64,000 nucleotides of DNA from an uncultured Spirochaetales bacterium (GTDB lineage Bacteria; Myxococcota_A; UBA9160; JAFDET01). The stretch covers positions 64,985 to 128,984 of the forward strand of contig CAYTZH010000009.1 in NCBI GenBank assembly GCA_964442285.1. Reading direction: 5' to 3'. Positions 8,241 through 42,789 of this stretch are shown here, piece by piece; position 1 is the first letter of the stretch, and every line of letters begins with the position of its first letter. The notes below the pieces were generated by a model, which was not told where the DNA came from, did no database searches, and was given only the letters and a program-made list of their open reading frames with translations. The position numbers were made by a program, and so were the translations under genes.

Positions 8241-8269
8241 GATCGACTCCTCACTCCCGCTCCCCGCTC

Positions 8270-9835: not shown

Positions 9836-9844
9836 AATGGCCCC

Positions 9845-12220
9845 GTGAACGAGGCGGCAGCTCGGCGCGACGAGCCTCCCTGGCCCACCGGGTCGACCTC
9901 CCGGACCGTCTTCCTGCTCGACGCGTCGAGCAGCCTGGAGGCGGGACTGCTGCGGGACTGGATCGCGCGCCACCGCCCCCCCGACCTGCCCGAGTCCGCG
10001 GTGGAGACGATCGCGCTGCCCCCGTCCCGCGTCCGCCGACGCCGGGGGCTCGACCCCCGGCTCGAGGAGACCGTCGCTGGCGGCGAGGACGTGCTGCTGG
10101 CGCCGCTGCGCGTGGCCTGGCTGCCGGCGCGGGTGGACGGCGTGCGGGCCGCCCGCTGGCGCGACCTGCTCACCCTGGGCGACCCCCGCGATCCCGGCCC
10201 GCTGCGCGCCCGCTGGACCCTCTCTCGTCACCCGGACCGCTGCCGCGTGGTGGCCGGCGAGCCCGCGCCGGTCTCGGAGCTGCGCGGGCGCTGGCGGGAG
10301 GCGGGCGGCGTCGAGGCCACCATGGGCCTGGCCGAGTTCGTGGCGCGCCAGGCGGCCCTGGCCCTGGAGCGCGCCGAGCGCCGCCTCCGCGGCGCGCGCT
10401 ACAAGGTCCCGCGCTTCGTGCGCGAGGACATCCTCGCGCGCCCGGCGGTGCGCGCGGGGCTCACCGCGCTCGCCCGCGAGCGGGGCGAGCCCGAGGCGCG
10501 GCTGCTGAAGGCCGGGGCCCGGTACCTCGCCGAGATCGCCGCCGCCCACAGCCACTTCGTGATCGACCTGGCGGCGTCGCTCATCCGCCTCCTCTACACC
10601 CAGGGCTACGGCGAGTCGCTGCGGGTGGACCGGCGCCAGCTCGAGGGCATCGCGGCCGTCGGCCAGCGACATCCCCTCGTGTTCCTCCCCTCCCACAAGT
10701 CCAACCTCGACCACCTGGTCCTGCAGTACGCCCTCTACGAGAGCGGGCTTCCGCCCAACCACACGGCCGGCGGGATCAACATGAACTTCTTCCCCGTGGG
10801 TCCCCTCGTCCGACGCAGCGGCGTGTTCTTCATCCGGCGCAGCTTCAAGGACAACTCCCTCTACAAGTTCGTGCTGCGCCAGTACGTCGACTATCTGATC
10901 GAGAAGCGCTTCTCCCTCGAGTGGTACGTGGAGGGGGGGCGCTCGCGCTCCGGCAAGCTGCTGCCGCCCCGCTTCGGCCTGCTCGCCTACGTGGTGGATG
11001 CCTGGCGGCGCGGCAAGGCGGAGAACGTCTACCTGGTGCCCGTCTCGATCGCGTACGACCAGATCTCCGACGTGGAGGACTACGCCGCCGAGCAGCAGGG
11101 CGGCGCCAAGCAGAAGGAGAGCTTCGGCTGGTTCGTCGGCGTGATCCGGCGCATGCGCCGGCGCTATGGCGACATCCACATCCGCTTCGGACAGCCCCTG
11201 TCCCTGGCCTCCGCCCTCGGCCGGGAGGAGCTGGTGTCCGAGCTCGACGCCGACCAGCCGGAGCTGGCGGTCCAGAAGCTGGCCTTCGAGGTCTGCGTGC
11301 GCATCAACCGGGCCACGCCGATCACGCCCACCTCGTTCGTGACCCTCACCCTCCTGGGCACGGGCGACCGCGCCCTCACCGTCGAGCAGATCGGCCTCGC
11401 CATGGGCAACCTGCTGGAGGACGTGCGGCGCCGGAAGCTGCCCACCACCCGGGAGCTCGAGGACCTGGAGACGCCCGACGGCATCCGCCGGGCCCTGGGC
11501 GCCCTCCAGGAGAGCGGGGTGGTGTCGTGTTTCGACGAGGGGCCGGAGGCCGTCTACGCCATCGAGCGCGACCGCCACCACACCGCGGCCTACTACCGCA
11601 ACGCGATCATCCACTTCTTCGTGACCGGCGCGATCGCCGAGCTGGCCCTGCTGCGCGCGGCCGAGCGCGAGGTGGAGGACCCGCCGGCCGAGTTCTGGGA
11701 GGAGGCCATGCGCCTCCGGGACCTGCTCAAGTTCGAGTTCTTCTTCGCGGAGAAGGAGCGCTTCCGGGAAGAGCTCCGCGCCGAGCTGTCGCTCCAGCAC
11801 CCGGACTGGGAGCGGCGGGTGGCCTCGGGGCCGCGCGAGATCGGCCCCCTGCTGCAGTCCCTGCGGCCCCTCAACGCCCACCGCGTGCTGCGCCCCTTCC
11901 TCGACGCCTACGACGTGGTGGCCGACGCCCTGGCCCGACGTCCCGCCGGCGCCGCGCTGGAGCGGGGACCGCTGATCGAGGAGTGCCTGGTGCTCGGGAA
12001 GCAGTACCTGCTCCAGCGACGCACCCGCAGCCCGGAGTCCATCTCGAAGCCGCTGTTCGAGACGGCGCTACGGCTCGCGGAGAACCGCGGGCTGCTCGCC
12101 GACGATCCCGCGGTGCCGGAGCGGCGTCGCGCGTTCGCGGCGGAGCTTCGCGCGGCGATCGGCCGCGTCGACGTGGTCGACGCCATCGCCGCCGCCCGGC
12201 GCGCTGCCCTCCTCAGCTAG
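9845..12220 (+). CDS. plsB: Glycerol-3-phosphate 1-O-acyltransferase
   Basis: 791 aa (PlsB size). HX4D box 'LPSHKSNLDHLVLQY', plus 'FFIRRSF' and 'EGGRSRSGKLL'. Confidence 0.9.
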   Translation: MNEAAARRDEPPWPTGSTSRTVFLLDASSSLEAGLLRDWIARHRPPDLPESAVETIALPPSRVRRRRGLDPRLEETVAGGEDVLLAPLRVAWLPARVDGVRAARWRDLLTLGDPRDPGPLRARWTLSRHPDRCRVVAGEPAPVSELRGRWREAGGVEATMGLAEFVARQAALALERAERRLRGARYKVPRFVREDILARPAVRAGLTALARERGEPEARLLKAGARYLAEIAAAHSHFVIDLAASLIRLLYTQGYGESLRVDRRQLEGIAAVGQRHPLVFLPSHKSNLDHLVLQYALYESGLPPNHTAGGINMNFFPVGPLVRRSGVFFIRRSFKDNSLYKFVLRQYVDYLIEKRFSLEWYVEGGRSRSGKLLPPRFGLLAYVVDAWRRGKAENVYLVPVSIAYDQISDVEDYAAEQQGGAKQKESFGWFVGVIRRMRRRYGDIHIRFGQPLSLASALGREELVSELDADQPELAVQKLAFEVCVRINRATPITPTSFVTLTLLGTGDRALTVEQIGLAMGNLLEDVRRRKLPTTRELEDLETPDGIRRALGALQESGVVSCFDEGPEAVYAIERDRHHTAAYYRNAIIHFFVTGAIAELALLRAAEREVEDPPAEFWEEAMRLRDLLKFEFFFAEKERFREELRAELSLQHPDWERRVASGPREIGPLLQSLRPLNAHRVLRPFLDAYDVVADALARRPAGAALERGPLIEECLVLGKQYLLQRRTRSPESISKPLFETALRLAENRGLLADDPAVPERRRAFAAELRAAIGRVDVVDAIAAARRAALLS

Positions 12221-13185
12221 ACGTGGTTCCGGAGCATGAGCTCCTTCGGGTGCGGCTCCAGGTAGGTCTGGCCCTGGAGGTAGTCCACCTCCTGAGCGCG
12301 GACGTGGTGGCGGATCAGGGTGAGCGGGACCACCAGCGGGACCAGGCCCGCCCGGTAGTCCTCGATGATCCCCAGGATCTCCCGCCGGTCGCCGTCGTCG
12401 AGGAGCTTCCGGAAGTGGCCGATCATGTGGTGCATGGCGTTGACGTGGCGCCGGGGCGTCGCGCGCCGGGCGAGTGCCTCCATGAAGCCACGCAGGTAGG
12501 CGTCGCGCAGCTCGGCGGCAGCAAGGCCCTTGGCCTCGGCCACCAGGCGGCCCAGGGCACGGTAGTGCTCGGGGGCGTGGGCCATGAGCTGGAGCTTGTG
12601 GGCCGTGTGGAAACGCACCAGGTCGCCCTGTCGCCAGCGCCCGTGGAACAGGTCCCGCACCCGTCGGTACGCGAAGATCCGCTCGATGAAGTTCTCCCGC
12701 AGCACGGGATCGTTGAGACGGCCCTCCTCCTCGACCGGCAGCTGTGGGAAGCGCTCGAGCAGGGCCGCGGCGAACAGACCTCGGCCCTTGCGCTCCGGCG
12801 GCCCGCCGGCGGCCGGGTAGAGCCGCACCCGCTCCATCCCGCAGCTCGGCGAGTCCTTCTTCAGGACGTAGCCGCAGAGGTCCAGGTCTCCGAGGGCAGC
12901 GAGCCGCTTCCGGGACCAGGTCTGCATGGCGCGGGTGTGGTCGCTGCCGCTGCGCTCGGCGCGCATCCGCACGTCGTCGCCGTCGCGGACCAGGCGCACG
13001 CTCTCGCGGGGAATCCCCATCCCCACCTCGACCTCGGGGCACACGGCCACCCATTCCACGAACGGGCCGAGAATGTCGGTCAGGAAGCGGTCGCGCTTGT
13101 GGCCGCCGTCGAAGCGCACCTCGCGACCGAGCAGGCAGGAGGAGATCCCGAGGCGAAGCGAGGACTGGCGGGACTCGGGGCGCAC
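12217..13185 (-). CDS. ybgA: YbgA-type fusion protein (DUF523 / TudS-like domain + DUF1722)
   Basis: 322 aa. N-terminal 'LGISSCLLG...VCPEVE...SPSCG' is the Cys pattern of DUF523. C-terminal 'LMAHAPEHYRALGRLVA...HVNAMHHMIGHF' is DUF1722-like. Located next to a photolyase, as in E. coli ybgA-phr. Confidence 0.85.
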   Translation of the reverse strand: MRPESRQSSLRLGISSCLLGREVRFDGGHKRDRFLTDILGPFVEWVAVCPEVEVGMGIPRESVRLVRDGDDVRMRAERSGSDHTRAMQTWSRKRLAALGDLDLCGYVLKKDSPSCGMERVRLYPAAGGPPERKGRGLFAAALLERFPQLPVEEEGRLNDPVLRENFIERIFAYRRVRDLFHGRWRQGDLVRFHTAHKLQLMAHAPEHYRALGRLVAEAKGLAAAELRDAYLRGFMEALARRATPRRHVNAMHHMIGHFRKLLDDGDRREILGIIEDYRAGLVPLVVPLTLIRHHVRAQEVDYLQGQTYLEPHPKELMLRNHV

Positions 13186-13337
13186 GTCGAGATTCTAGCG
13201 CGCAACGAAGAAGCGCGGGCCGATTCGCCCCCCGTCGCCAGCGCCCCTTTGCGACGGATTTCGGATCGACCCGCGCGAACCGTGTCCTTCGAAAGCGAAG
13301 ATGAATGCTCTCCCGCCTTCGTCAAGGGCGTCCCGGC

Positions 13338-14405
13338 CTACACGACGATTCCGTCGTGATCGCAGAGTGCCGCCAGCAGGCTCTCGAGCGCCGCCCGCGC
13401 CCGGCCCGCCCCCTCGTGCAGCCGGCGGTGCAGCGCCGCATCTCCGGGATCGCGGCTCTCGCAGTGCGCCGAGTACGCCTCGAAGGCTGCCAGGCTGCTG
13501 ACCAGGGCCGAGAGATGGTTGGGGCACTCGCAGTCGACACCCGAGGTTATCTCCGCGAGGCGGGCCAGCTGCGCGTCCTCGAAGAGCCGCTCGGGAACCG
13601 GCTGCGGCTCGGCCTCGTTGGATGCGGTGCCTGCCGTCCGGCGGCGCGCCCACTCGAACATGACGAGATCGAAGAGGGTCCGGCGCAGGACCTCCAGCCG
13701 CACGGGAGCACGCACGAGCTTGGCCCCACGGCTGCCGAGCCGGGCCAGGAGCTCGCGGCGCGCGAAGGTGTACACGATCACGGCGACCGCCTCGCCGGCG
13801 GCGGCGAGGAGAGCGTCTACGGTCGCCAGCGGATCCGGACCCAGGGCATCGAGCTCGACCAGCAGCAGGGAGCAGGGCTGGAAGCGGAGCGCCTCGCGGA
13901 GCTCCTCCGGCTGCGCCGCGTCCAGGGCGAGGTCGAAGCCGGCCAGACCATGCGGATTTGCCGTCAGCTGCGCCCGGATGCCCGGTGCGAGCAGCGCCAG
14001 TCGGCGGGCCCTCACGTCTGCGCCGGCGCCGGCGTTCACGTCTGCGCCGGAGCCGGCGTTCACGTCGGCGCCCGCGCTGGCGTTCGCATCGGCGTCGCGG
14101 TCAGGCTTTGCGGGCTGCCGCCCCAGGCCGAGGCCCGCCAGCCGCTCGAGCCGCGAGCGCAGCTCTTCGTCGGAGAGCAACGCCGCGGTGCGAATGGGCT
14201 CTCCGCACTCGGTCAGCGCCTTGAGCAGCTGCAGGCGCACCACGTCCATGTCGTCGTACAGACGCGTGCCGCCCGGCGTCCGACGCGGACGCACGGCGCC
14301 GTGGCGTCGCTCCCAGGCGCGGATCGTGTGGGGATCGAGGCCGGTCAGGCTGGCGACGGTCCCGATCTGATAGCCGTCCACGTCGACGGCGGCCTGCTCG
14401 CTCAT
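13338..14405 (-). CDS. MerR-family regulator, CarH/LitR paralog without B12-ligand motifs and with a Cys/His-rich C-terminal module
   Basis: ATG 14405 follows the SD 'gggagga' and overlaps the photolyase stop as ATGA. The HTH 'IRAWERRHGAVRPRRTPGGTRLY..DVVRLQLL' is nearly identical to the CarH-like protein at 16019. No W-x9-EH or E/D-x-H-x-x-G motif is present. The C-terminus carries 'CECPNH...HC...CDH'. Confidence 0.8.
   Translation of the reverse strand: MSEQAAVDVDGYQIGTVASLTGLDPHTIRAWERRHGAVRPRRTPGGTRLYDDMDVVRLQLLKALTECGEPIRTAALLSDEELRSRLERLAGLGLGRQPAKPDRDADANASAGADVNAGSGADVNAGAGADVRARRLALLAPGIRAQLTANPHGLAGFDLALDAAQPEELREALRFQPCSLLLVELDALGPDPLATVDALLAAAGEAVAVIVYTFARRELLARLGSRGAKLVRAPVRLEVLRRTLFDLVMFEWARRRTAGTASNEAEPQPVPERLFEDAQLARLAEITSGVDCECPNHLSALVSSLAAFEAYSAHCESRDPGDAALHRRLHEGAGRARAALESLLAALCDHDGIVV
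14013..14084 (-). repeat. 3 x 24-nt in-frame tandem repeat encoding the (NAGxGADV)n linker of the MerR paralog
   Basis: The unit 'cacgtctgcgccggcgccggcgtt' is repeated with a few substitutions. Confidence 0.85.
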
Positions 14406-15844
14406 CGCTTCCTCCCGGATGCTCGGGGCCGCTCGGCGGCGGCACGGCTCCTCAGTGCTTCGAACCGCGCGAGCGCGCGCTGGCGCGCCCAGGCGTGGTC
14501 GACGATCGGTTGCGGATAGTCCGGCGCGGCCATCGGCGCGTCCCAGGGGCGGTGCGCCGACTTCCCCCCCAGCGCGGCGAGCTCGGGAATCCAGCGACGC
14601 ACGTAGTCGCCGTCCGGGTCGAAGCGCTCGCCCTGGAGGGTCGGGTTGAAGATCCGGAAGTACGGCTGGGCATCGGTGCCGGTGGACGCGGCCCACTGCC
14701 AGCCGCCGTTGTTGCTGGCGAGATCACCGTCGACGAGATGGCGGTAGAAGAAGTCCTCTCCGCGACGCCAGTCGACCAGCAGGTCCTTGGTGAGGAAGCT
14801 CGCCGCGATCATGCGCACCCGGTTGTGCACCCATCCGGTCGCCGCCAGCTGTCGCATCCCGGCGTCCACGATCGGGTAGCCCGTGCGGCCCTCGCACCAT
14901 GCCGCAAAGCCCTCGGGATCGTCCTCCCAGGCGAGGTCGTCGTACTCCCGCCGGTAGGATTGGTGCCGCACCCGCGGATGCTCGGCGAGCAGCGCGTTGT
15001 AGAACTCGCGCCAGATGAGCTCGTCGACCCACTTCTGCACGCCGTGCTGGGCGCCGGGCTCCTCGACGGCGAGGGTTTCGGCGGCCTCGATGCAGTCCCG
15101 CACCGACAGCATGCCGAAGCGCAGGTAGGGAGACAGCCGCGAGGTGGCGTCGAGCGCCGGGTAGTCCCGACGCTCGGCGTATCTGGCGACGTCGCGCGCG
15201 AGGAAGCTCCGCAGGCGTCGCCGCGCGGCCGCCTCGCCCGCCGGGGGCAGGTCGGGCATCGCGACCGAGTCCGCAGGGCGCGCGGCGGCCGCCGGAAGGT
15301 CGTCGCTGGCCAGGCTCGGAATCGGCGCCGGAAGGCGCGAGGCGCGCACCGGGAGCTCGGGATCCCGAAGCCAGCGAGCCCTCCAGGCCTTCCGGTAGGG
15401 GGAATAGACGGCGTAGGGGCGTCCGGAGGCTGAGCAGACTTCGCGGCTCTCGAATACGACGCGGTCCTTCCAGGTCTCCACCCGCGCTCCAGCCTTCTCG
15501 ACGGCTGCGCGCACCCGCTCGTCGCGCGCTGCGGCGAAGGGGCCGTAGTCGCGGTTGAAGCCCACCACGTCGGCGCGAGACTCGTCCACCAGACGCGGCA
15601 GTACGTCCTCGGGCCGCCCCCGGCGCACGATCAGGGAGGATCCCCGCTCTGCGAGATCCGCGGCGAGGCGGGCGACGCCCTCGAGGAGGAAGCGCGTGCG
15701 TGCCGTGCCGCTTCGGTCGCCGTCGAGCAGCCGCGGGTCGAGGATGTAGACCGGCGCGAGCGCTTCGCTGCGCGCTGCGAGGCGCTCGAGGCCGCGGTTG
15801 TCTCGCAGGCGCAGGTCGCTGCGTATCCAGAAGAGGGTGCGCAT
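14402..15844 (-). CDS. phrB: Deoxyribodipyrimidine (CPD) photolyase, class I type
   Basis: 480 aa. Contains 'LFWIRSDLRLRDN', 'WREFY' and 'DGDLASNNGGWQWAASTGTDAQPYFRIFNP'. Confidence 0.92.
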   Translation of the reverse strand: MRTLFWIRSDLRLRDNRGLERLAARSEALAPVYILDPRLLDGDRSGTARTRFLLEGVARLAADLAERGSSLIVRRGRPEDVLPRLVDESRADVVGFNRDYGPFAAARDERVRAAVEKAGARVETWKDRVVFESREVCSASGRPYAVYSPYRKAWRARWLRDPELPVRASRLPAPIPSLASDDLPAAAARPADSVAMPDLPPAGEAAARRRLRSFLARDVARYAERRDYPALDATSRLSPYLRFGMLSVRDCIEAAETLAVEEPGAQHGVQKWVDELIWREFYNALLAEHPRVRHQSYRREYDDLAWEDDPEGFAAWCEGRTGYPIVDAGMRQLAATGWVHNRVRMIAASFLTKDLLVDWRRGEDFFYRHLVDGDLASNNGGWQWAASTGTDAQPYFRIFNPTLQGERFDPDGDYVRRWIPELAALGGKSAHRPWDAPMAAPDYPQPIVDHAWARQRALARFEALRSRAAAERPRASGRKR

Positions 15845-15963
15845 GGGTCAGCCGGATCCGGATCCGGCCTCCGGGGAGATCGCGGACGCGCCGGAGTGCC
15901 TGGGCGTGCCGTACATTCCCGAGTCGTCGTAGTGATCCGGCCGCAGATTCCTCACACCTGGAA

Positions 15964-15990
15964 CTTGACAGGAGACCGGATCCCGTCAAG
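15964..15990. promoter_or_regulatory. Imperfect 27-bp palindrome with back-to-back TTGAC(-35-like) boxes in the phr / carH divergent intergenic region
   Basis: 'CTTGACAGGA gaccgga TCCCGTCAAG' is a 10-bp inverted repeat with 1 mismatch. It reads TTGACA toward carH and TTGACG toward phr. It is flanked by 11-mers that fit nAnnTnnACAn (15961-15971 plus strand, 16004-15994 minus strand). Confidence 0.35.
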
Positions 15991-16018
15991 GCTCTGTCTA
16001 GATTTGGGGAGATCCTCA

Positions 16019-16939
16019 ATGAAACGAGCCGTGGGGGGAGATGTGGACCGCGATGAGGCGGGCTCCGAGCCGAGCTACCCGCTGGGCGTCGTCGTGCGAA
16101 TGACGGGGCTCTCGGAGCACGTGATCCGGGCCTGGGAGCGACGTTATGGGGCCGTGAGCCCTGTCCGGACGCCCGGTGGCACGCGGCGCTACACGGAGCA
16201 GGACGTGGCGCGGCTCCAGCTTCTGCGCAAGGCCGTCGACGCGGGACACCGGATCGGGGACATCGCGCGCCTCTCGGACGAGGCGCTTCAGGCGCAGGTC
16301 GGCCCGGTCTCGGATCCCGGCCCCGCAACGCCCCTCGACGAGATCCGTCAGGCGGTCGACAGCCTCGACGCCCGGGCCCTCGAAGCGCAGCTGGGGCTCC
16401 AGCTCAGCCTGCTGGGGCCGGTCCCCTTCGCCCGCCGGGTGGCCGTGCCGCTGCTGAGCGAGCTGGGCGAGCGCTGGGCGCGCGGTGAGCTGTCCGTCGC
16501 CGCGGAGCACCTGGTGACCAGCACCACCCGCAGCCTGTTCGGGATGGCGCTCCACGCGGGGTCCCGAACCGATGGTGCGCCGCGCGTGCTCCTCGCGACG
16601 CCCGCGGGCGAGCGCCACGAGTTCGGCCTGCTCGTGGCGGCGCTGACGGTCATGGGCGCGGGCGGAGACGTCGTGTATCTGGGGCCGGACCTGCCGGCCG
16701 AGGAGGTGGCGGCGGCAGCGGGGCAGACCGGCGCGGCCGCGGTGGGTCTCAGTATCGTCAACCTCTCGTCCGGCGAGGCTCGTCGCTACGTCCGCGATCT
16801 CCGGCGCCGACTCCCCGAAGCCACCGCCCTGTGGGTGGGTGGCTCCGCGGCGGGCGACGTCGATGCCGCGGATCGCCTCGACCTCGAGGGTCTGGAGCGG
16901 CGGGTGGGCCTGCTCCTGCAGCAGGGCGGGCACCGCTGA
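16019..16939 (+). CDS. carH: CarH/LitR-type AdoB12-dependent light-sensing MerR-family repressor
   Basis: ATG 16019. MerR HTH, then 'WARGELSVAAEH' (W-x9-EH) and 'GERHEFGLL' (E-x-H-x-x-G) followed by a Rossmann-like B12-binding domain. Confidence 0.85.
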   Translation: MKRAVGGDVDRDEAGSEPSYPLGVVVRMTGLSEHVIRAWERRYGAVSPVRTPGGTRRYTEQDVARLQLLRKAVDAGHRIGDIARLSDEALQAQVGPVSDPGPATPLDEIRQAVDSLDARALEAQLGLQLSLLGPVPFARRVAVPLLSELGERWARGELSVAAEHLVTSTTRSLFGMALHAGSRTDGAPRVLLATPAGERHEFGLLVAALTVMGAGGDVVYLGPDLPAEEVAAAAGQTGAAAVGLSIVNLSSGEARRYVRDLRRRLPEATALWVGGSAAGDVDAADRLDLEGLERRVGLLLQQGGHR

Positions 16940-17019
16940 GACGCCCGAAGCGTCCCGGAAGCTAGACATTCCCCCAGGGGGTGAAAAATCGGTCTCGTGT
17001 CTAGTTTTTTTGGCCAGAA

Positions 17020-17041
17020 TACCTTGACTTTACCTAGACAG
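17020..17041 (+). promoter_or_regulatory. Two tandem 11-bp direct repeats overlapping a TTGACT -35-like box upstream of the sigma gene (candidate CarH operator)
   Basis: 'TACCTTGACTT' and 'TACCTAGACAG' match at 8/11 positions. The second fits the recalled CarH half-site nAnnTnnACAn exactly. Further TAGACA boxes lie at 16962-16968 (plus strand) and 16998-17004 (minus strand). Confidence 0.4.
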
Positions 17042-17076
17042 CGCGCGACCCTTGTCTGCGTACAGGAGGAGTACGC

Positions 17077-18432
17077 ATGTTCAACGAGACGTCGACTTCC
17101 GAGAGCGCGGAGACCCCCACCCCCAGCTCCCGCCGCCAGCAGCGGACCGCGAGCGCCCAGGGCCGCCAGCTCGACCCCGATCTGCCGACCTACACCCTGA
17201 AGGCCTATCTGCGCGAGATTGCCGATGTCCCGACGCTGAGCCGCGAGGAGGAGGGCGAGATCGCGGCCCGCATCCGCTCGGCCACCGAGCGCTTCCGGGA
17301 GCAGGCCGTCGCCGTCCCCTTCGTCGCCGAGCGGATCGTGACCCGCTGGGATTCCTTGCGCGAGGCCGGTCGCTCGACGTCCTCGATGTCCACCCACTTC
17401 CGGGATCCCCATGCGGGCGATCCCGGGCCGGCCCTCGACCGGGCCCTGGGTAGCGTCCGGCGAGAGCTGCGCCGGCTGGCGGAGGCTCCGGCGGAGAGTC
17501 GGGAGGAGATCCGGCGGCGCATGGCGCGCGCGCTGGCTCGCGCCGACGTCGCCCTGCCGCTGCTCGAGGACGCATTCTGCGCCCTGCGCGACGGCGCCCG
17601 CCCCAGCCGGGGACTGGGGCTCCCGGCCGCAGAGCTCCGCGCCTGCCTCGCGGCCCTCGCCGACGCCCTCGACGAGATGTTCGAGGCCCGTAACGCCTTC
17701 ATTCGCCACAACGTGAAGTTCGTCGTGCACCTGGCCAAGGAGTACCGGGGCATGGGCATCGGCTTCCAGGATCTGATCCAGGAGGGCAACCTCGGTCTGA
17801 TCCGCGCGGTCGAGAAGTTCGACCACCGCCGCGGCTTCAAGTTCTCCACCTACGCCGCCTGGTGGATCCGGCAGTCCTTCATCCGGGCCGTCCAGAACCA
17901 CAGCCGCACCATCCGCCTGCCGTCCCACGTCTACGACCTGGCGATCCGGGAGAAGCGGGTGCGCGCCGAGCTCGCCCGCCGCCTGGGCCGGGACCCGAGG
18001 CCGGCGGAGCTGGCCGAGGAGCTGGGCGTGGCGGTGGAGGAGGTGGAGAACCTCCACCAGATCAATCGCCGCACCCTGTCCATCGAGACCGAGAGCGAGG
18101 ACGAGGAGGGGCGCTCCCTGCACGAGCGCATGGGCGACCCCAACGTGGCCGATCCCACCGAGGATCTCACCCGTGAGGCGCTGGGCCCGGCGATGGAGGC
18201 CCTCCTCGTGGGCCTCTCCGAGCGGGAGCGCCAGATCCTGCACCTGCGCTTCGGCCTCCGCAGCGACGAGCCCCACACCCTGCAGGAGATCGGCGAGATC
18301 CTCGGCCTGTCCCGCGAGCGGGTGCGCCAGATCGAGAAGCGGGCGCTCGAGAAGCTCCGCGAAGTGGCGGTGGATCGGGGCCTCCACGGCGCGCTCGACC
18401 GGGACGACCTGGCCACGGACGCAGCTGCCTGA
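17077..18432 (+). CDS. Sigma-70-family RNA polymerase sigma factor (full-length, non-ECF; regions 1.2, 2, 3, 4)
   Basis: SD 'aggagga' lies 7 nt upstream of the start. Contains '[16 protein letters not shown]', '[34 protein letters not shown]' and '[27 protein letters not shown]'. An insert of about 130 aa sits between regions 1.2 and 2. Confidence 0.9.
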
Positions 18433-18510
18433 CGTACGACGCGGGCCCGACACCGGGCCACGCCGCATCCGCGCCCCACTCTCCCACGAAACCACGGAAG
18501 GAGGAGAGAG

Positions 18511-19554
18511 ATGCGATCCATCGATCTCGCAGAGTCCGGCCGCGTCCCCGATGCGCTCATCCGGATCGGTATCCGGCGCATGCTCGCCCGACGTCATCGG
18601 GAGGTGACGGCGGGGGACGCCGAAGCGCGACAGCAGGCCCACGCGGCCTTCGTGGAGGCGCTGCGGCAGAGCCCGATCGCGCTCGTTCCGGAGCGAGCAA
18701 ACGCCCAGCACTACGAGGTTCCGGCCGAGTTCTTCGCCCAGGTGCTCGGCCCCCACCTGAAGTACAGCTGCGGCTACTGGCCAGCGGGCGTGTCGAGCCT
18801 CGAGGCCTCCGAGGCCGCCATGCTCGAAAGGACCTGCGCGCGCGCTGACATACGGGACGGCATGCGTGTGCTGGACCTGGGCTGCGGCTGGGGCTCCCTC
18901 TCGCTCTGGATCGCCCAGCGATTTGCTTCGACGCGCGTCGTGGCGGTGTCGAACTCCAAGCTCCAGCGCGAATGGATCCTGCAGCGCTGCGATCAGGCGG
19001 GGCTCTCCAACGTGGAGGTCGTCACCGCCGACGCCAACCGCTTCGAGCCCCCGGGTCGCTTCGACCGCGTCGTCTCGGTGGAGATGTTCGAGCACCTCCG
19101 CAATTGGGAGGAGATGTTCCGCCGCGTCTCGCGCTGGCTCGAGGACGATGGCCGCTTCTTCCTGCACGTCTTCTGCCACCGGGAGGCCGCCTACCCCTAC
19201 GAGAGCGAGGGCGAGCAGAACTGGATGGGCCGGAACTTCTTCACCGGCGGGATGATGCCCTCCGACGACCTGCCGCTGCACTTCTCGCGGGATCTGCGGG
19301 TGGAGCGCCGCTGGCGGGTCGGCGGGCTCCACTATCACCGGACCTGCGAGGCCTGGCTGCAGCAGCTCGACGCCCGTCGCGACGCGGTGATGCCGATCCT
19401 GGCCTCGACCTACGGTGCGGATCGGGCCCGCCTCTGGCTGCAGCGCTGGCGCCTGTTCTTCCTGGGATGCTCGGAGCTGTTCGCGTGGCAGGGCGGCGAG
19501 GCCTGGTGGGTCTCCCACTACCGGCTGGCTCCGCAGCGGGGAGACCGGTCGTGA
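18511..19554 (+). CDS. CMAS/CFA-synthase-family SAM-dependent methyltransferase (short form)
   Basis: 347 aa. Contains '[24 protein letters not shown]', the SAM motif '[11 protein letters not shown]' and 'VSVEMFEHL'. Confidence 0.85.
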
Positions 19555-20792
19555 AGATCGCCGTCGTGGGCACGGGCATCTCCGGGCTGGCCGTCGCCCA
19601 CGCGCTCCACCGCAACCACGCGCTTACCGTATTCGAGTCCGCGGACTGGATCGGCGGGCACACCCACACGGTGGACGTGGAGATCGAGGGCGCCCACCAC
19701 GCCGTCGACACCGGCTTCATCGTCTACAACGAGCGCACCTATCCCGGTTTCGTCGGGCTGCTGTCCGAGCTCGGCGTGTCGACCCAGCCCACCGACATGA
19801 GCTTCAGCGTGCGCTGCGACCGCAGCGGCCTCGAATACTCGAGCAGCGGTCTGCAGGGACTCTTCGCCCAGCGTCGCAATGCGCTCCGGCCCTCCTTCCT
19901 GCGCATGGTCTCGGAGATCCCGCGCTTCAACCGCGCGGCCCGCGCTCTGCTCGCGTCGCCGGACGAGAAGACCACGCTGGGAGACTGGCTCGACGGGCTC
20001 GGTCTCTCGCGCCAGCTCCGCGACCACTACGTGCTGCCGATGGGCGCGGCGATCTGGTCGACGCCGGCCGGCAAGTTCCTCCAGTTCCCCGCGTCGACCT
20101 TCGCCCGCTTCTTCGAGAACCACGGGCTGCTGGAGACCCGGGAGCGGCTGCCGTGGCGCGTGGTCCGCGGCGGCTCGCGGACCTACGTGGAGGCGCTCAC
20201 CGCCCCGTTCCGCGACCGGATCCGCCCGGGCAGCCGCGTGCGGGCGGTGTGGCGGGAGGACGACGGGGTCCACGTCGCCGCCCCGGGCGGGGTCGAGCGC
20301 TTCGACCGGGTGGTGCTCGCCTGCCACGCCGACCAGGCGCTGAACCTCCTCATCGACGCGGACGGGGCGGAGCGCCAGACGCTCGACGCCTTCGCCTACC
20401 AGCCCAACCGCGTGGTGCTGCACACGGACCGGAGCGTCCTGCCGCGGAGCCGCCGCGCCTGGGCGAGCTGGAACTACCGCACGCCCCGCCAGCCCGAGAG
20501 TCCGGTCGCAGTCACCTACCACATGAATCGGCTCCAGGGCTTCCGGGCCTCCGAGGAGCTGCTGGTGACCCTGAACGACGACGGTGCCATCGATCCCGCG
20601 CGCGTGCTGGAGAGCTGGACCTACCACCACCCGGTGTTCACGCCGGAGGCGATCGCCGCCCAGAAGCACCACGACCGGATCGACGGACGCGACCGCGTCC
20701 ACTTCTGCGGGGCCTACTGGCGCAACGGCTTCCACGAGGACGGCCTCCAAAGCGCCCTCGCCGTGGTCCGCCACCTGGGCGGGGAACGCTGA
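19551..20792 (+). CDS. FAD-dependent oxidoreductase (amine-oxidase/desaturase fold; UfaD-like)
   Basis: GTG 19551 (GTGA overlap). Dinucleotide fold '[16 protein letters not shown]' followed by 'GGHTHTV'. Confidence 0.85.
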
Positions 20793-20793
20793 C

Positions 20794-21576
20794 GTGGAGA
20801 GCTGTCTCTTCGAGGGGATGGTGCGACACCGCCGCTTCGGGCCGGTTCCCCACGGCTTCTCCATGCCCCTCTTCATGGCGTACCTCGACCTGGACGAGCT
20901 TCCGCAGGTGTTCCGGGGCCGCTGGCTTTGGTCGGCCTCGCGGCCCGCCCCCGCCCGCTTCCACCGCAGCGACTACCTGGGCGACCCCCGGCTGCCCCTG
21001 GACCGGGCCGTGCGCGACCTGGTGGAGAACCGGACCGGCATCCGCCCGCGCGGGCCGATCCGGCTGCTCACCCACCTCCGCTACTTCGGGTACGTCTTCA
21101 ACCCCGTGAGCCTCTACTACTGCTTCCACCCGGAGAGCGAGCGCCTGGAGGCGATCGTCGCCGAGGTGACCAACATGCCTTGGAAGGAGCGCCACGCCTA
21201 CGTACTTCGGCCCGACCCCGAAGCGGAGTCCGGCTCCGTCCTCCGCTTCGACGAGGACAAGGCCTTCCACGTGTCGCCCTTCCTCGACATGGACCAGCGC
21301 TATCGCTGGCACCTGCAGGTCCCGAGCGACCGGCTCGTGGTCGGGATCGAGAACCTGGGCCCGCGAGGCGACCGGCTTCACACGGCCTCCCTCGAGATGG
21401 AGCGGCGCGAGATCTCGAGCGCCAGCCTGGCCCGTGCCTTGGTGCGCTTCCCGCTCATGACCCTGCAGGTGACGGCCGGGATCTACTGGCAGGCGCTCCG
21501 GCTGCGCCGCAAGCGCGTTCCCGTCTACCCCCACCCTCGCGAGCGCGAGGTCGCCCTGGAGCTGGCCCCCGAATGA
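20794..21576 (+). CDS. DUF1365-family protein (UfaO-like)
   Basis: GTG 20794. '[33 protein letters not shown]' is the typical DUF1365 N-terminus. Confidence 0.85.
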
Positions 21577-22850
21577 GTGACGCCACCCTTCCCATCGAGA
21601 ATCCGACCCCGGAGATCCAGCCCCTGGGCTGGCTGGACCGGAAGATCCGCAGCGCCGTCCTGGCGCGGCTCGAGCGCCTCGACCGGGGACGGCTGACCCT
21701 GGTGGACGGCGACGAGAAGCGGCGCTTCGGAAACGGGGGCGGTCCCCGGGCCACGGTCTGGGTGAAGCGCGCACGCTTCTACCGCCGCCTGGCCCTGCGC
21801 GGGGGCGTGGGCGCCGCCGAGGCCTACATGGACGGCGACTGGGAGACCAGCGACCTCACCGCCGTCGTGCGGATCGTCGCCGCGAACCCCGGCGCCCTGG
21901 AGAAGCTGGACGTGGGTCTCGCGCGGGTCGCCGGCCTCGGACTGCGCCTCTATCACGAGTTGCGCCCCAACAGCCGGCGCGGCAGCCGCCAGAACATCGC
22001 GGCCCACTACGACCTGGGCAACGACTTCTTCTCCCTCTTCCTCGACCCGAGCCTCACCTACTCCTGCGCGGTCTTCGAGCGCGAGGGCATGAGCCTCGAG
22101 GACGCCCAGGTGGCGAAGTACGAGCGGGTGTGTCGCAAGCTGCGGCTGGGCTCGGACGACCACGTCCTCGAGATCGGCAGCGGCTGGGGGGGCTTCGCGA
22201 TCCACGCCGCGAGCCGCTACGGCTGCCGGGTCACCACCACGACCGTGTCCCGGGAGCAGCTCCAGCTGGCGCGGGAGCGGGTGGCCGCCGCCGGCCTCTC
22301 CGATCGTATCGAGGTGCTCTTCCGCGACTACCGCGACCTGAGCGGCGAGTACGACAAGGTCGTGTCCCTGGAGATGATCGAGGCGGTGGGCGCCCCCAAC
22401 CTCGATACCTACTTCCGCGTCTGCGCGGAGCGCCTGCGACCCGACGGCGCCATGCTGCTCCAGGCCATCACCGTACCCGACCGCCACTGGCAGGTCTCGG
22501 TCCGCAACGTGGACTTCGTGAAGCGGTACATCTTCCCCGGCGGCCAGCTCGTATCCGTCGGGGGCGTCGGCGCCTCCCTGGCCCGAGCGACGGACCTGCG
22601 CATGGCGCACCTCGAGGAGATCACGCCCCACTACGCCGAAACCCTGGCCCGCTGGCGGGAGAACATGAACCGCAACCTGGCCCACATTCGCGCGCTGGGC
22701 CTTCCCGAGCGCTTCCTGCGCATGTGGGAGTACTACCTCTGCTACTGCGAGGGCGGCTTCGCCGAGCGGGCGATCGGGGTATACCAGATGCTGCTGGAGA
22801 AGCCCCTCGCCCGACGCGACCCGATCCTGGGGCGGCTGGAGGCCGCCTGA
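21573..22850 (+). CDS. cfa: Cyclopropane-fatty-acyl-phospholipid-synthase-family methylase (long form; UfaM/Cfa-like)
   Basis: ATG 21573 (ATGA overlap). Contains '[28 protein letters not shown]', '[12 protein letters not shown]' and '[10 protein letters not shown]'. Confidence 0.9.
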
Positions 22851-22885
22851 GTCCGAAACCCGCGAGGGAGCGAAGGAGGAGCCCG

Positions 22886-23440
22886 ATGCGAAAGCAACTT
22901 GCCATGGGAGCCCTGGTGGCCCTGCTGACCGCGACGCCGGTCCGAGCAGCCGTGATCGAGGGCGTGGACTTCGTCGACGCGCGCAGCGAGTCCGGCGTGG
23001 CGCTTCGGCTCCACAACGTGGCGCTGCTGCGCTGGTACTTCCTCAAGGCCTACGTGGCGGCGCTCTATCTGGGAGACGGCGTGGCCCCGGGCCGCGTGCT
23101 CGGCGACGTCCCCAAGCGGCTCGAGATCGAGTACTTCTACGGGATCGGGGCCGAGGACTTCGCGAAGTCCACCCGCGTCACCGTCGGCCGCAACGTGCCG
23201 CCGGGTGCGTACGAAGCACTTCGGACACGCATCGAGCGCTTCAACGCCCTCTACCGGGACGTGAAGCCGGGCGACCGCTACGCCCTGACCTACCTGCCGG
23301 GTCGCGGCACGGAGCTCGCCCTGAACGGAGAGGTGCTCGGACGCGTCGAGGGCGCCGACTTCGCCGCCGCCATGTTCTCGATCTGGCTCGGCGAGGACCC
23401 GGTGGACGACGACCTGAAGACGGACCTGCTGGGACCGTGA
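22886..23440 (+). CDS. Secreted chalcone-isomerase-like (fatty-acid-binding fold) protein
   Basis: Signal peptide 'MRKQLAMGALVALLTATPVRAAV'. Contains 'LKAYVAALYLG' and 'FSIWLGEDPVDDDLK', typical of the CHI-like family that accompanies cfa/DUF1365 clusters. Confidence 0.7.
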   Translation: MRKQLAMGALVALLTATPVRAAVIEGVDFVDARSESGVALRLHNVALLRWYFLKAYVAALYLGDGVAPGRVLGDVPKRLEIEYFYGIGAEDFAKSTRVTVGRNVPPGAYEALRTRIERFNALYRDVKPGDRYALTYLPGRGTELALNGEVLGRVEGADFAAAMFSIWLGEDPVDDDLKTDLLGP

Positions 23441-24846
23441 GCGGCGCGCGGGTGCCGACCGCCGCGCGCCTCGCCTACGCGGCGCCGGCATTCGCGATGG
23501 CCGTGATCGGGATCCCGGTCTACGTCTACGTCCCGAAGTTCTACACCGACGTCGTGGGCGTCGACGTGGTGCTGGTGGGCCTCGTGCTGCTCGGGGCGCG
23601 GCTCTTCGACGCGGTGACCGATCCCCTGGCGGGCTGGCTCTCGGACCGCACCCGCAGCCGCTTCGGGCGCCGGCGGCCCTGGATCGTGGCCGCCTCGCTG
23701 CCCCTGGCCCTGGCGTTGGCGGCGCTGTTCAACCCGCCCGCCGCGGGCGGCGCCATCCCGGCCCTGTGGCTGGCCTTCGGGATCTTCGCCCTCTTCCTGT
23801 GCTTCACGGCCGCCTCTGTGCCCTACGAAGCGCTCGGCCCGGAGCTGACCTTCGACTACCACGAGCGCACCTCGCTGCTCGGGCTGCGGGACGGCGCCCT
23901 CCTGGCCGGCACGCTGTTCGCCGCCGCGGTTCCCAGCGCGATCGCGGTGGCCCTGGGCGAGCCCACCGAGTCGCCCGGGCGCGGGACCTTCGCCTGGATG
24001 GCCCTGCTCTTCGCGCCCCTGCTCGTGGCGGCCTGCGTCGTATGCGCGGTCGCGCTGCGCGAGCGGGCCCGGCACCACAGCGCCGCCGCCGACGCCTTCG
24101 GGGGGCTGCGTCTGATCCTCTCCAACCGGCCCTTCCGCGTCCTGCTGATCTCCTACACCGTCGCGGCGCTGGGTAGCAACCTGCCCGCCACGCTGCTGCT
24201 CTACTACGTGCAGTACGTGCTCGAGTCCGATCGGGCGGGGCTCTTCCTGGTGCTCTACTTCGTGGCGGGCATCGCCTTCCTCCCGGGCTGGATCGCCCTC
24301 TCGCGCAGGTTCGGCAAGAAGCGCGCCTGGCTGGCGGGCATGGCCGTCAATACCGGCGCCTTCTCCGGGGTCTTCTTCCTGGGGCCCGGCGACGAGCTGG
24401 CCTACGGCCTGCTCGTGGTACTCTCCGGTGTGGGTCTGGGGGCCACGCTGGCGATTCCCTCCTCGATGCAGGCCGACGTCATCGACTACGACGAGCTCCG
24501 CTCCGGCGAGCGTCGCGAGGGGCGCTACGTCGGGATCTGGTCCGTGGCCAAGAAGCTGGCCGCCGCCCTCGGCGTGGGCGTCGCCCTGCTCGTCTTCGGC
24601 AGCAGTGGCTACGCCCCGAACGTCCAGCAGAGCGAGGAGGTCCGTTTCGCCCTGCGTTCGCTCTACGCCCTCGTACCCTGCCTGTGCAACATCGTGGCCT
24701 TCGTGATCGCGCTCGCCTATCCCATCGACGCCGACACCCATCGCGAGATCCGCGCGGAGATCGATGCGGGCCGGGTGGGGGCCGACGCCCGCGACCCGCT
24801 CGCGACGGGCGTCCTGCGACCCGCGGCGGAGGGCGGGGCCCCGTGA
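23437..24846 (+). CDS. MFS_2/GPH-type transporter (paralog of 4261-5601)
   Basis: GTG 23437 (GTGA overlap). Contains 'DAVTDPLAGWLSDRTRSRFGRRRPW' and about 12 TM segments. Confidence 0.85.
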   Translation: MSGARVPTAARLAYAAPAFAMAVIGIPVYVYVPKFYTDVVGVDVVLVGLVLLGARLFDAVTDPLAGWLSDRTRSRFGRRRPWIVAASLPLALALAALFNPPAAGGAIPALWLAFGIFALFLCFTAASVPYEALGPELTFDYHERTSLLGLRDGALLAGTLFAAAVPSAIAVALGEPTESPGRGTFAWMALLFAPLLVAACVVCAVALRERARHHSAAADAFGGLRLILSNRPFRVLLISYTVAALGSNLPATLLLYYVQYVLESDRAGLFLVLYFVAGIAFLPGWIALSRRFGKKRAWLAGMAVNTGAFSGVFFLGPGDELAYGLLVVLSGVGLGATLAIPSSMQADVIDYDELRSGERREGRYVGIWSVAKKLAAALGVGVALLVFGSSGYAPNVQQSEEVRFALRSLYALVPCLCNIVAFVIALAYPIDADTHREIRAEIDAGRVGADARDPLATGVLRPAAEGGAP

Positions 24847-25823
24847 GCGACGGCCTCCGCCGCGCGATCACCCTCCCGACGTACCTGCTGCTGACGGCGC
24901 TGGCGCTCCCGGCGCTCCCGCTCCTGCTCCCCCTGGCCGCGATCGTCGACCTGGCGAGAGGCACGAGGCTCGGCCTGTCCCGCTCGCTGCTCTTCTTCAC
25001 CTGGTACCTGCTCTGCGAGACCTACGGCATCGTCGCGGCGGGCGCCCTGGCCCTGGCGCGTCCATGGCTCTCCGCGGGGGGCTGGGAGCGCATCCACCAG
25101 CGGCTCAAGCGCGGCTGGGGTCGGGCGCTGCTGACCGGGGCCGAGCGCATCTTCGGGCTCCGCTTCGAGGTCGAAGGCGACGCCGAGGCGGCAGCGGGTC
25201 CGATGCTGCTCTTCCCGCGCCACGCGAGCGTGGCCGACACCGTGCTGGCCGCGGCCTTCCTCGAACACCGGCACCACCTGGCCCTCCGCTACGTGATCAA
25301 GCGCGAGCTGCTCTGGGATCCGTGTCTCGACCTGGTGGGACGTCGGCTTCGCAACGCCTTCGTGGACCGGTCCGGAGCCGACAGCGCCGCTGAGATCGCG
25401 ACCGTGCGCGCCCTGGCCCGGGATCTGGGACCGGGGGACGGCGTCCTCATCTATCCCGAGGGCACGCGCTTCAGCGAGGCCAAGCGCAGCCGGATCCTCG
25501 AGCGGCTCGAGGCCCGCGACGCCGACCTGCACCGACGGGCCCGCGGGCTGCGCCACGTGCTGCCGCCGCGGCTGGGGGGGTGCCTGGCGCTCCTCGAGGA
25601 GCGGCCCGACGCCGACGTGGTCTTCTGCGCCCACGCGGGCTTCGACGGCGTGACGCGCTTCTCGGAGTTCCTGGACGGCGGCCTCGTAGGCCAGGTGGTG
25701 CGGATCGCCTTCTGGCGCGTGCCGGCCCCGGGGATACCCCGCGAGCCCGACGCCCGCATCGACTGGCTCTTCTCCCAGTGGGCGCGGGTGGACGCCTGGG
25801 TCGGCGCCCACCGCAAGCCCTGA
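24843..25823 (+). CDS. Lysophospholipid / 1-acylglycerol-3-phosphate acyltransferase family protein (membrane-anchored)
   Basis: GTG 24843 (GTGA overlap). HX4D box 'PRHASVADT' and 'YPEGTRF'. The N-terminus has TM helices. Confidence 0.8.
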   Translation: MSDGLRRAITLPTYLLLTALALPALPLLLPLAAIVDLARGTRLGLSRSLLFFTWYLLCETYGIVAAGALALARPWLSAGGWERIHQRLKRGWGRALLTGAERIFGLRFEVEGDAEAAAGPMLLFPRHASVADTVLAAAFLEHRHHLALRYVIKRELLWDPCLDLVGRRLRNAFVDRSGADSAAEIATVRALARDLGPGDGVLIYPEGTRFSEAKRSRILERLEARDADLHRRARGLRHVLPPRLGGCLALLEERPDADVVFCAHAGFDGVTRFSEFLDGGLVGQVVRIAFWRVPAPGIPREPDARIDWLFSQWARVDAWVGAHRKP

Positions 25824-25858
25824 GCCCCGAACCCCCGACCGAGCCTTTCGAGGAGCCC

Positions 25859-27093: not shown

Positions 27094-27103
27094 GCGGATC
27101 CGG

Positions 27104-27193: not shown

Positions 27194-27243
27194 GTGATAG
27201 ACTGCCGGGTCCGCCGTCCGCGGGACGGCGCCAGGAGGCTTCG

Positions 27244-42728: not shown

Positions 42729-42789
42729 CCGGCCACCCCGTCGCGTCGGTTGGACGCGCCGATCTCCGCCCGTATTCGCCGCAGCCGGC

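Follow-up and report, generated by a model that had tools for sequence, protein, structure and literature searches.

A predicted CarH-type photoreceptor gene adjoins the gene of a full-length, group-2-like sigma factor in an uncultured bacterial lineage

Introduction

In Streptomyces, the repressor LitR, which uses 5'-deoxyadenosylcobalamin (AdoCbl, or AdoB12), keeps the bidirectional litR/litS promoters repressed in darkness, and illumination releases the sigma factor LitS (PMC11519972). Direct repression of sigma-A-dependent carotenoid promoters, through 11-bp nAnnTnnACAn repeats over the -35 box, is the mode of action of the CarH proteins characterised from Thermus thermophilus, Bacillus megaterium and Myxococcus xanthus. 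CarH homologues are defined by two motifs in combination, W-x9-EH and one of the ExHx2G type; CarA lacks W-x9-EH, which accounts for its independence of B12 (PMC8156234). Here we describe a locus within a 64,000-nucleotide stretch of DNA (the window; positions 64,985 to 128,984 of contig CAYTZH010000009.1, assembly GCA_964442285.1, from an uncultured Spirochaetales bacterium placed in Myxococcota_A by GTDB) in which a predicted carH gene lies directly ahead of the gene of a full-length sigma-70 family factor.

A sequence-only reading of this locus had held that the described B12 light circuits relay to extracytoplasmic function (ECF) sigma factors. It counted among these factors CarQ of Myxococcus, LitS of Streptomyces and the partner sigma of the class III LitR of Burkholderia. 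Published work agrees with the claim for LitS of Streptomyces; Myxococcus CarQ, by contrast, is not downstream of a B12 receptor, since it acts in a separate, B12-independent singlet-oxygen/CarR pathway while CarH acts as the direct repressor of a sigma-A promoter (PMC9304148, PMC8156234).

Two described gene sets are relevant to the output of the locus. In Rhodobacter, RSP1091 is the desaturase UfaD and RSP1090 is the DUF1365 protein UfaO, and these proteins make furan fatty acids in the singlet-oxygen response (PMC7380195). In Pseudomonas, class II LitR (PplR/PmlR) is a MerR/LitR repressor of a cluster with the photolyase gene phrB, ufaM and a flavin adenine dinucleotide (FAD) oxidoreductase gene; photolyase and ufaM are light-induced under it, and its promoters are of the sigma-70 type (TTGACT-N16-TATGAT; PMC9758184).

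Results

The regulator has the sequence features of CarH

We found that the 306-aa product of the predicted carH gene contains MerR_1 (amino acids 20-87, 58.7 bits), B12-binding_2 (106-175) and B12-binding (189-277) Pfam domains, all above the gathering score. The MerR_1 part aligns to the DNA-binding domain of Thermus CarH (TtCarH), and the whole protein aligned end to end with T. thermophilus CarH (5C8D/3WHP; E = 1e-32). The W-x9-EH motif reads WARGELSVAAEH (amino acids 153-164) and is kept in all eight other regulators examined. ERHEFG lies at amino acid 198, and a direct count on the translation gave ERHEFG-x41-SIV-x26-GG, so that the B12-binding motif ExHx2G-x41-SxV/T-x22-27-GG is complete and includes the lower-axial histidine. 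Domain order and both motifs (W-x9-EH and ExHx2Gx41SxVx26GG) are those of the Thermus, B. megaterium and M. xanthus proteins; the histidine beside the tryptophan in Thermus CarH (H132) is an alanine in the window regulator. All tandem-clade orthologues retain W-x9-EH and the lower-axial histidine, as the window regulator does. The domain searches, motif counts and alignment thus agree with the sequence-only reading, which had recognised a MerR regulator with both B12 motifs. CarH is by far the best-scoring NCBIfam family for this protein despite a score below its cut-off. By sequence, the regulator has every feature expected of CarH and is a distant CarH member rather than an equivalog.

In the regulators of a divergent sub-clade (L005 6796-7827, L006 6947-7819 and L098 5978-6865; handles beginning with L or P denote relatives throughout), W-x9-EH is kept and ExHxxG is replaced by G-D-P-Y, and the helix-turn-helix scores as HTH_17. 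Cobalamin binding by these proteins may be different or absent.

The sigma factor is full-length and group-2-like

After a 137-bp spacer (16940-17076), the regulator gene is followed on the same strand by the sigma factor gene, at the coordinates first reported for it. We found that all four sigma Pfam domains of the 451-aa product score above gathering: Sigma70_r1_2 (amino acids 41-67), r2 (209-278), r3 (293-362) and r4 (377-429). Regions 1.2 and 2 are separated by ~135-140 aa, close to the insert of about 130 aa that had been seen in the translation, and the AlphaFold model of this ~135-aa insert is a helical bundle (pLDDT, the model's per-residue confidence, > 90). The model of the factor is closest to E. 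coli and Vibrio sigma-70 over ~470 columns, and both of these also have an insert there. Among chains in the Protein Data Bank (PDB), the group 1 factors SigA, RpoD and HrdB scored highest (200-209 bits), followed by RpoS and Mycobacterium tuberculosis SigB (175-191 bits) and RpoH (94 bits). The NCBIfam ranking was the same as the PDB ranking, with every RpoD and RpoS cut-off missed.

Region 2.4 of the window sigma has the sequence RQSFIR, in which I269 corresponds to T440 of sigma-70. In contrast, the canonical RpoDs examined, including one from Myxococcota, read RQAITR and all have threonine there. Isoleucine or valine occupies the T440 position throughout the ~450-aa sigma family, and only linked clades show the combination F439-I440. 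In region 4.2 the sequence SRERVRQ is shared with sigma-70 and is consistent with a TTGACA -35 box. In a neighbour-joining tree built on 232 conserved columns, canonical RpoDs (including those of a Myxococcota metagenome-assembled genome, MAG, and of Bacteriovorax) stand apart from a family of ~420-520-aa sigmas, and the window sigma belongs to this family, outside the canonical RpoD clade. A library-wide HMMER search with the insert alone returned 121 representatives among 1.84 billion, 16 of them at E <= 1e-10, and the architecture therefore appears confined to a narrow lineage; the few named carriers among the hits are 'Deltaproteobacteria bacterium' or 'Myxococcota bacterium' MAGs.

On this evidence the sigma resembles groups 1 and 2, and 'group-2-like' is the best label by sequence. 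An ECF factor (regions 2 and 4 only, ~170-250 aa) is ruled out by the length, by regions 1.2 and 3 and by the insert, as the reading of the sequence had concluded. A primary, group 1 factor is ruled out by RQSFIR, the tree position and the genomic context, and a group 3 factor by the presence of region 1.2 and the low RpoH score. Of the earlier 'group-2/3-like' assignment, only the group 2 half therefore survives. A match to NCBIfam MzaA, an anti-phage sigma, reflects generic sigma similarity (252 against a cut-off of 800).

The carH-sigma pairing is conserved in relatives

To compare genomic contexts, we used 14 sigma homologues and two metagenome loci. A regulator with MerR and B12 domains lies directly upstream on the same strand in the window, P0002, P0005, P0012 (two contigs), P0021, P0045, L089 and L090, and directly upstream and divergent from the sigma gene in P0025, P0027 and P0034. 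No regulator adjoins the sigma gene in P0030 and P0064 (groESL-lexA-PTPS-folE-[sigma]-surA-mreBCD), P0073 (preceded only by a Chalcone_3 gene), P0080 (TetR/RND), L009 or L010. Assembly GCA_028278065.1 holds both the linked sigma P0021 and P0030, in its groESL-mreB context, so the two are paralogues within one genome. When we sorted the loci by the region 2.4 signature Q[SA]F[IV]R, which 54 of the 120 best cluster representatives carry, a regulator adjoined 11/11 sigma genes with the signature (window included) versus 0/6 without it (Fisher's exact p ~8e-5). The synteny proposed for related genomes thus exists, and the pairing exceeds chance.

The linkage survives both tandem and divergent arrangements, down to 45% identity, which argues for functional coupling. 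The regulator orthologues are 48-55% identical, about as diverged as the sigmas, which fits co-inheritance as a unit. A scan of genome contigs with the sigma alignment, which matched on the universal sigma stretches FxDLIQEGN and GL[IV]RAVEKF, returned mostly ordinary RpoD from many phyla; among the matches listed, only L009 and L010 were family members, neither of them carH-linked. A metagenome scan with an insert-specific alignment gave two true loci, L089 and L090, and carH is upstream in both. In L001 the sigma gene is followed by mscL, so that it adjoins carH even where the lipid genes are missing. The constant core of the module is carH, sigma and the photolyase arm.

Some features lie beyond the module. 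Synteny between window 6834-12220 and L003 2277-7575 extends past it (a 468-aa protein, an M20 peptidase and a PlsB-like glycerol-3-phosphate acyltransferase), which indicates a fairly close relationship between the sources of the window and of L003/L004. In the window, L003/L004 and L099, the light island is bordered by a glycerol-3-phosphate acyltransferase gene. The conserved surroundings of the unlinked paralogous sigma gene (groESL-lexA-PTPS-folE-sigma-surA-mreBCD) include a histone-fold gene (CBFD_NFYB_HMF/Histone; L096 637-846, L097 414-632); bacterial histones are uncommon.

Candidate CarH operators cover the -35 boxes of both control regions

We found that repeats with the full CarH consensus nAnnTnnACAn number five around carH; two adjoining ones are partial, and a tandem pair lies over each -35 box (Table 1). 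CTAGACA occurs four times in the 64-kb window, against 1.24 expected window-wide. All four copies lie within the 174-bp and 137-bp spacers beside carH (311 bp), each inside a full match to the consensus. The two-repeat pattern with 11-bp spacing matches only 15985-16003 (-) and 17021-39 (+), and 0/100 shuffles reach two matches. The repeats thus form candidate CarH operators, as recognised by sequence, over the -35 boxes of both control regions.

These layouts are kept in L001, L002, L003, L008, L089 and L090, as cTTGAC-N16-GTCAAgTT...TGTCTAGA on the carH side and as TGTCTAGA-N4-6-TCTAGACA-N3-TTGACA on the sigma side. Upstream of carH, relatives have aaCTTGACn-N16-nGTCAAgTT, that is, two fully overlapping divergent promoters in which each -35 box contains the other's -10, and the TCTAGACA repeat is 11 bp from the minus-strand TTGACA. 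At the sigma gene of relatives, TTGACA is followed by a 17-nt spacer, a -10 box of CAGATT, CAACAT, CATCAT or GATGAT and, 6-7 nt later, the ATG (MDFD...). The minus-strand -10 likewise ends 7 nt ahead of the start of a DCC1-like gene in four loci. Such short distances imply leaderless mRNAs, and the sigma genes (starts in L001-L003, L008, L089 and L090) and DCC1-like genes of relatives look leaderless.

We predicted the sigma promoter of the window by reading the sequence and aligning it to the promoters of relatives. The window sigma gene differs from them in having a ~17-nt leader with AGGAGG (17059-17076), an N-terminus of MFNE... rather than MDFD..., and one repeat shifted 11 bp into the promoter spacer (17031-17041). 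A scan of 15700-18700 gave no consensus terminator, and all that follows the sigma stop is a GC hairpin lacking a U-tract. This upholds the remark that no obvious terminator follows the sigma gene. RNA folds of the two carH-flanking spacers were no better than shuffles (z = -1.9 and +0.2), and no Rfam family matched anywhere in the window, which argues that it holds no cobalamin riboswitch.

Predicted module promoters carry C at -12

T is the usual base at promoter -12. In 307 kb of lineage DNA, we found 23 sites of the form TTGACn-N16/17-CAnnnT, of which 19 are carH, photolyase or sigma promoters. The corresponding form with T, TTGACn-N16/17-TAnnnT, occurs eight times, including at groES (with CIRCE), the P0030-type sigma gene and divergent-clade regulator genes. 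Overall, T is at -12 in 0/~20 predicted module promoters, whereas the housekeeping promoters of the lineage have it. The E. coli sigma-70 substitutions T440I and Q437H are known suppressors of -12 T-to-C changes (Siegele 1989, Waldburger 1990, reviewed in PMC2613000). As in the window sigma, T440I puts an isoleucine at this position of the region 2.4 helix, and the associated promoters have C at -12. The E. coli mutations are laboratory suppressor alleles; here, in contrast, the residue is natural across the sigma family and its effect is a predicted one. From the -12 C promoters and the isoleucine at the T440 position we infer that the linked sigma may read the module's own promoters, and this is the least secure step of our account.

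In the 64-kb window, TTGAC-N17/18-CANNNT has two matches (0.37 expected), the photolyase-arm promoter and a site upstream of the DUF1722 gene (13298-13325). Two further observations concern sites without a CarH repeat. Between fumC and rubrerythrin in L001 (19668-19700), overlapping divergent promoters (TTGACC-N17-CAAGAT / TTGACC-N17-CAACAT) have the design of the carH/photolyase region but no CTAGACA, and this pair is a candidate sigma-dependent, CarH-independent target. In L096, a -12 C site upstream of lexA-PTPS-folE marks a candidate regulon member.

The flanking genes resemble photo-oxidative defence sets

The window has ~72% G+C, and codon-position G+C follows a plus-strand gene run (16019-28830) and a minus-strand arm (15844 down to 12217). 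The sigma gene is followed by ten same-strand genes (18511-28830; Table 1); nine lipid-modification genes had been counted before, and while the same-strand run stands, it includes an MFS_2 transporter and an AMP-binding ligase. A cyclopropane-fatty-acid (CFA)-synthase-like methylase, an amine-oxidase-like desaturase and DUF1365 are encoded together, which is the content of a furan-fatty-acid cluster, and 19551-23440 matches Rhodobacter RSP1091-1088 by Pfam family, order and size. Together with the Pseudomonas set, this match points to a known photo-oxidative defence set as the output. By gene content, the downstream genes form a furan-fatty-acid, singlet-oxygen-type cluster. In L003 (14451-16280), the CFA-synthase-like and Chalcone_3 proteins are fused into a 609-aa product, which suggests that both work together. 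The most constant gene after sigma is that of the PlsC-like acyltransferase (L002, L003, L005, L006, L008, L098 and L099).

The sigma stop overlaps the next gene in L002, and the gap is 13 bp in L008 and 78 bp in the window, where no terminator was found. These short gaps make co-transcription likely, with the CarH-gated sigma promoter probably serving the lipid genes as well. A relay through the sigma factor, which the sequence-only reading had placed between light and the lipid genes, is thus not required to reach them.

On the divergent side, the photolyase gene is followed by a gene for a second MerR regulator whose DNA-binding domain is 55% identical to that of CarH over 75 aa; counterparts of this gene follow the photolyase gene in L002 and L008. 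In the C-terminal part of the second MerR (270 aa) there are a low-complexity linker of the GADVNAG type and the motif CECPNH...C, and the pairing is reminiscent of CarA/CarH or of the B12-independent LitR classes. The DUF1722 gene is in the same arm in L002, L003, L008 and L099. In nearly all linked relatives examined, the first and apparently leaderless gene of the arm encodes a DCC1-like thiol-disulfide oxidoreductase (L001 8499-8909, L003 8559-8960, L008 6511-6930). We searched the window for a DCC1-like gene or remnant and for DUF72 and found neither; with no DCC1-like gene in 15845-15960, ~117 nt separate the predicted minus-strand promoter from the start of the photolyase gene. Elsewhere in the window, an ECF sigma gene (42117-42854, minus strand) lies just upstream of polA (42790-45447), but it has no CarH-type repeat in its vicinity and shows no evident connection with the light module.

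Table 1. Coordinates of the predicted light module and flanking genes in the window
Feature	Coordinates	Strand	Remarks
carH, AdoCbl-type photoreceptor repressor (predicted)	16019-16939	+	306 aa; ATG at 16019; Pfam, motifs, alignment to TtCarH
CarH-linked full-length sigma-70 family factor	17077-18432	+	451 aa; regions 1.2, insert, 2, 3, 4
Operator and overlapping divergent promoters	15961-16004	.	TTGACA (+, 15965-15970), TTGACG (-, 15989-15984), each over the other's -10
CarH-type 11-bp repeats at carH/photolyase	16004-15994, then 15993-15983	-	AATCTAGACAG, then AGCCTTGACGG
Operator at sigma promoter, 11-bp repeats	16959-17041		AAGCTAGACAT (+, 16959); AAACTAGACAC (-, 17007-16997); tandem pair tACCTTGACTt / TACCTAGACAG (+, 17020-17041)
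Predicted sigma promoter	17024-17052	+	-35 TTGACT, 17-nt spacer, weak -10 GACCCT; Shine-Dalgarno AGGAGG 17064-17069
CFA-synthase-family S-adenosylmethionine (SAM) methyltransferase (UfaM/FufM-like)	18511-19554	+	Pfam CMAS, 149 bits
FAD amine-oxidase-family protein (UfaD-like fatty-acyl desaturase candidate)	19551-20792	+	Pfam Amino_oxidase; place before DUF1365 as in RSP1091-1090
DUF1365 protein (UfaO-like)	20794-21576	+	Pfam DUF1365, 272 bits
Cyclopropane-fatty-acyl-phospholipid-synthase-like methyltransferase	21573-22850	+	Pfam CMAS, 300 bits
Chalcone-isomerase-like (Chalcone_3) protein	22886-23440	+	
MFS_2 / GPH-family transporter	23437-24846	+	
Acyltransferase (PlsC-like)	24843-25823	+	
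SRPBCC (Polyketide_cyc) lipid-binding protein	25859-26308	+	
DUF1295 membrane protein (steroid-reductase/PEMT-like)	26305-27093	+	
AMP-binding acyl-CoA-ligase-like enzyme, end of same-strand run	27244-28830	+	Same position in L002, L003, L008
DNA photolyase, divergent from carH	14402-15844	-	Pfam DNA_photolyase and FAD_binding_7
Second MerR regulator	13338-14405	-	No B12 motifs; unrelated C-terminal domain
2-thiouracil-desulfurase/DUF1722 (YbgA-like), last gene of arm	12217-13185	-	Pfam 2-thiour_desulf and DUF1722
Candidate promoter TTGACG-N16-CATCTT (C at -12), no CarH repeat	13298-13325	-	Upstream of DUF1722 gene

Discussion

We propose that the locus is a light-response module of a Myxococcota-like lineage and that in the dark the regulator, bound to its repeats, would cover the -35 boxes of two control regions, that of the divergent photolyase-arm and carH promoters (~15961-16004) and that of the sigma gene promoter (~16997-17041). 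Light would photolyse AdoCbl and the repressor would leave the DNA, so that three units could be transcribed: the photolyase, second MerR and DUF1722 genes; carH; and the sigma gene together with the genes for furan fatty acids and lipid remodelling behind it. The sigma factor (SRERVRQ, RQSFIR) is proposed to prefer TTGACA-N16/17-CAnnnT. As module promoters have this form, it would reinforce its own operon, and it would bring unlinked photo-oxidative-defence genes without a CarH operator into the response. We favour this general scheme with somewhat better than even confidence: in darkness CarH would hold the photolyase gene, its own gene and the sigma operon repressed, light would lift the repression, and sigma would amplify and extend the response. 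The more specific proposal is tentative, and we would put it at a little under even: a lineage-specific, light-dedicated sigma that prefers -12 C through its Phe-Ile pair and forms a B12-gated positive-feedback switch which turns on unlinked oxidative-defence genes. Candidates for such targets are rubrerythrin/fumC (L001), lexA-PTPS-folE (L096) and the DUF1722 gene (window). The computations show the domains and motifs, the conserved synteny, the confinement and conservation of the repeats, the -12 C type of promoter and the clade-specific region 2.4. AdoCbl binding, repression, light induction, co-transcription, the promoter preference of the sigma factor and autoregulation are all things that we infer, as is the light relay through sigma.

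Several observations weigh against this scheme. The regulator scores 136 bits against NCBIfam NF052513, the CarH equivalog, for which the cut-off is 400 (an annotation threshold, not a biochemical one). Its repeats are arranged as one inverted and two direct, whereas characterised CarH operators, such as those of T. thermophilus and B. megaterium, have three or four direct repeats. The second MerR may use, or compete for, the same CarH repeats. The -10 boxes of the window, GACCCT (sigma) and AAGGCT (carH), fit more poorly than those of relatives, a strict promoter scan of 15700-18700 found no promoter, and the CAAGTT -10 of the divergent pair is in part dictated by its palindrome with the opposing TTGAC. 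Isoleucine or valine at the T440 position is also found in unlinked paralogues, so that the -12 C preference may be a property of the whole sigma family and another paralogue may read the module promoters. The sigma tree is a neighbour-joining tree without support values, and none of the 120 best hits is a sigma homologue from a cultured species.

The same paralogues bear on the view that CarH gates the operon directly and that the sigma is a co-regulated passenger, with targets elsewhere or overlapping those of the housekeeping sigma and with no feedback loop. A passenger would also suit the position of the lipid genes directly against the sigma gene, the sigma-70-like -35 determinants, and window -10 boxes that start with G or A and not C. 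Such a role leaves the lack of -12 T in the module promoters, against its presence in the lineage's housekeeping promoters, without a counterpart, and it does not sit well with an F439/I440 signature specific to linked clades or with a sigma gene that stays beside carH in L001 where the lipid genes are missing; we regard it as unlikely, though well within reach. If one instead takes the regulator to be B12-independent or non-photosensory like CarA, or the second MerR (13338-14405) to be the true light or redox regulator, the module would respond to oxidative stress and not to light directly. The loss of ExHxxG (DPY instead) in divergent-clade regulators, the related DNA-binding domain and Cys/His-rich C-terminus of the second MerR, and the control of the same gene set by singlet oxygen via sigma-E/ChrR in other bacteria all lean that way, but the window protein and its tandem-clade orthologues keep the W-x9-EH and lower-axial histidine motifs that define functional CarH (PMC8156234), and we consider this improbable. 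That the adjacency has no regulatory meaning, the sigma being a lineage-specific housekeeping-like paralogue beside a photoprotection island, draws on the occurrence of ~450-aa sigmas in unrelated contexts (groESL-mreB; TetR/RND); set against the 11/11 versus 0/6 linkage, kept in both gene orders and down to 45% identity, and against CarH-type repeats over the sigma promoter, it strikes us as very improbable indeed.

The scheme of a CarH-gated sigma operon is by analogy a variant of LitR-LitS logic with a full-length sigma. Streptomyces LitR is likewise an AdoB12-dependent MerR-type repressor of an adjoining sigma gene, and its bidirectional layout is that of the divergent sub-clade L005, L006 and L098. 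In contrast, LitS is an ECF (group 4) factor that reads GCATCCR-N15-CVGAAD promoters of carotenoid genes, whereas the window sigma has regions 1.2 and 3, a 135-aa insert and TTGACA-type -35 boxes and is linked to genes for photolyase, furan fatty acids and lipids; the 64-kb window holds no crt genes. Compared with characterised CarH proteins, whose targets are carotenoid promoters, the predicted targets here include a sigma gene. The Rhodobacter sphaeroides RSP1091-1087 operon has UfaD, the DUF1365 protein UfaO, a CFA-synthase-like gene and small accessory genes in the same order as the window, but its input is singlet oxygen via the ECF sigma-E and anti-sigma ChrR, where the window has a candidate B12 photoreceptor. 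Rhodobacter also uses the non-ECF RpoHII as a second-tier sigma; RpoHII is a group 3, heat-shock-type factor, whereas the window sigma reaches only 94 bits to RpoH. Pseudomonas class II LitR controls a similar photolyase-ufaM-FAD oxidoreductase cluster but is B12-independent, with a LOV protein as anti-repressor and no dedicated sigma. The earlier suggestion that the architecture matches no described system therefore applies to the pairing and not to the lipid genes, which match RSP1091-1088 (PMC7380195). In the literature searched, whose coverage is incomplete and which offers absence of evidence only, we found no published report of a full-length sigma partnered with CarH or LitR, only the ECF factor LitS.

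Known B12 photoreceptors, in the literature searched, either repress sigma-A promoters or release an ECF sigma, and a conserved pairing with a group-2-like sigma would be a third kind of circuit. If the scheme is true, B12 photoreception would be connected with photorepair and with the protection of membranes by furan fatty acids instead of with carotenoids, and the linked sigma would show in nature the textbook specificity change of T440I towards -12 C. On the more specific proposal, the lineage would hold a naturally orthogonal photoreceptor-sigma-promoter set. Cloned parts alone could show whether CarH uses mixed inverted and direct repeats and whether the region 2.4 Phe-Ile re-targets -10 recognition, and CarH, sigma and promoter together are a potential compact green-light switch orthogonal to the host sigma-70. 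The combination Q[SA]F[IV]R ... PSH[VI]YD with the insert motif LSxxWRDPxxxDPxP gives a signature for metagenome searches for the module.

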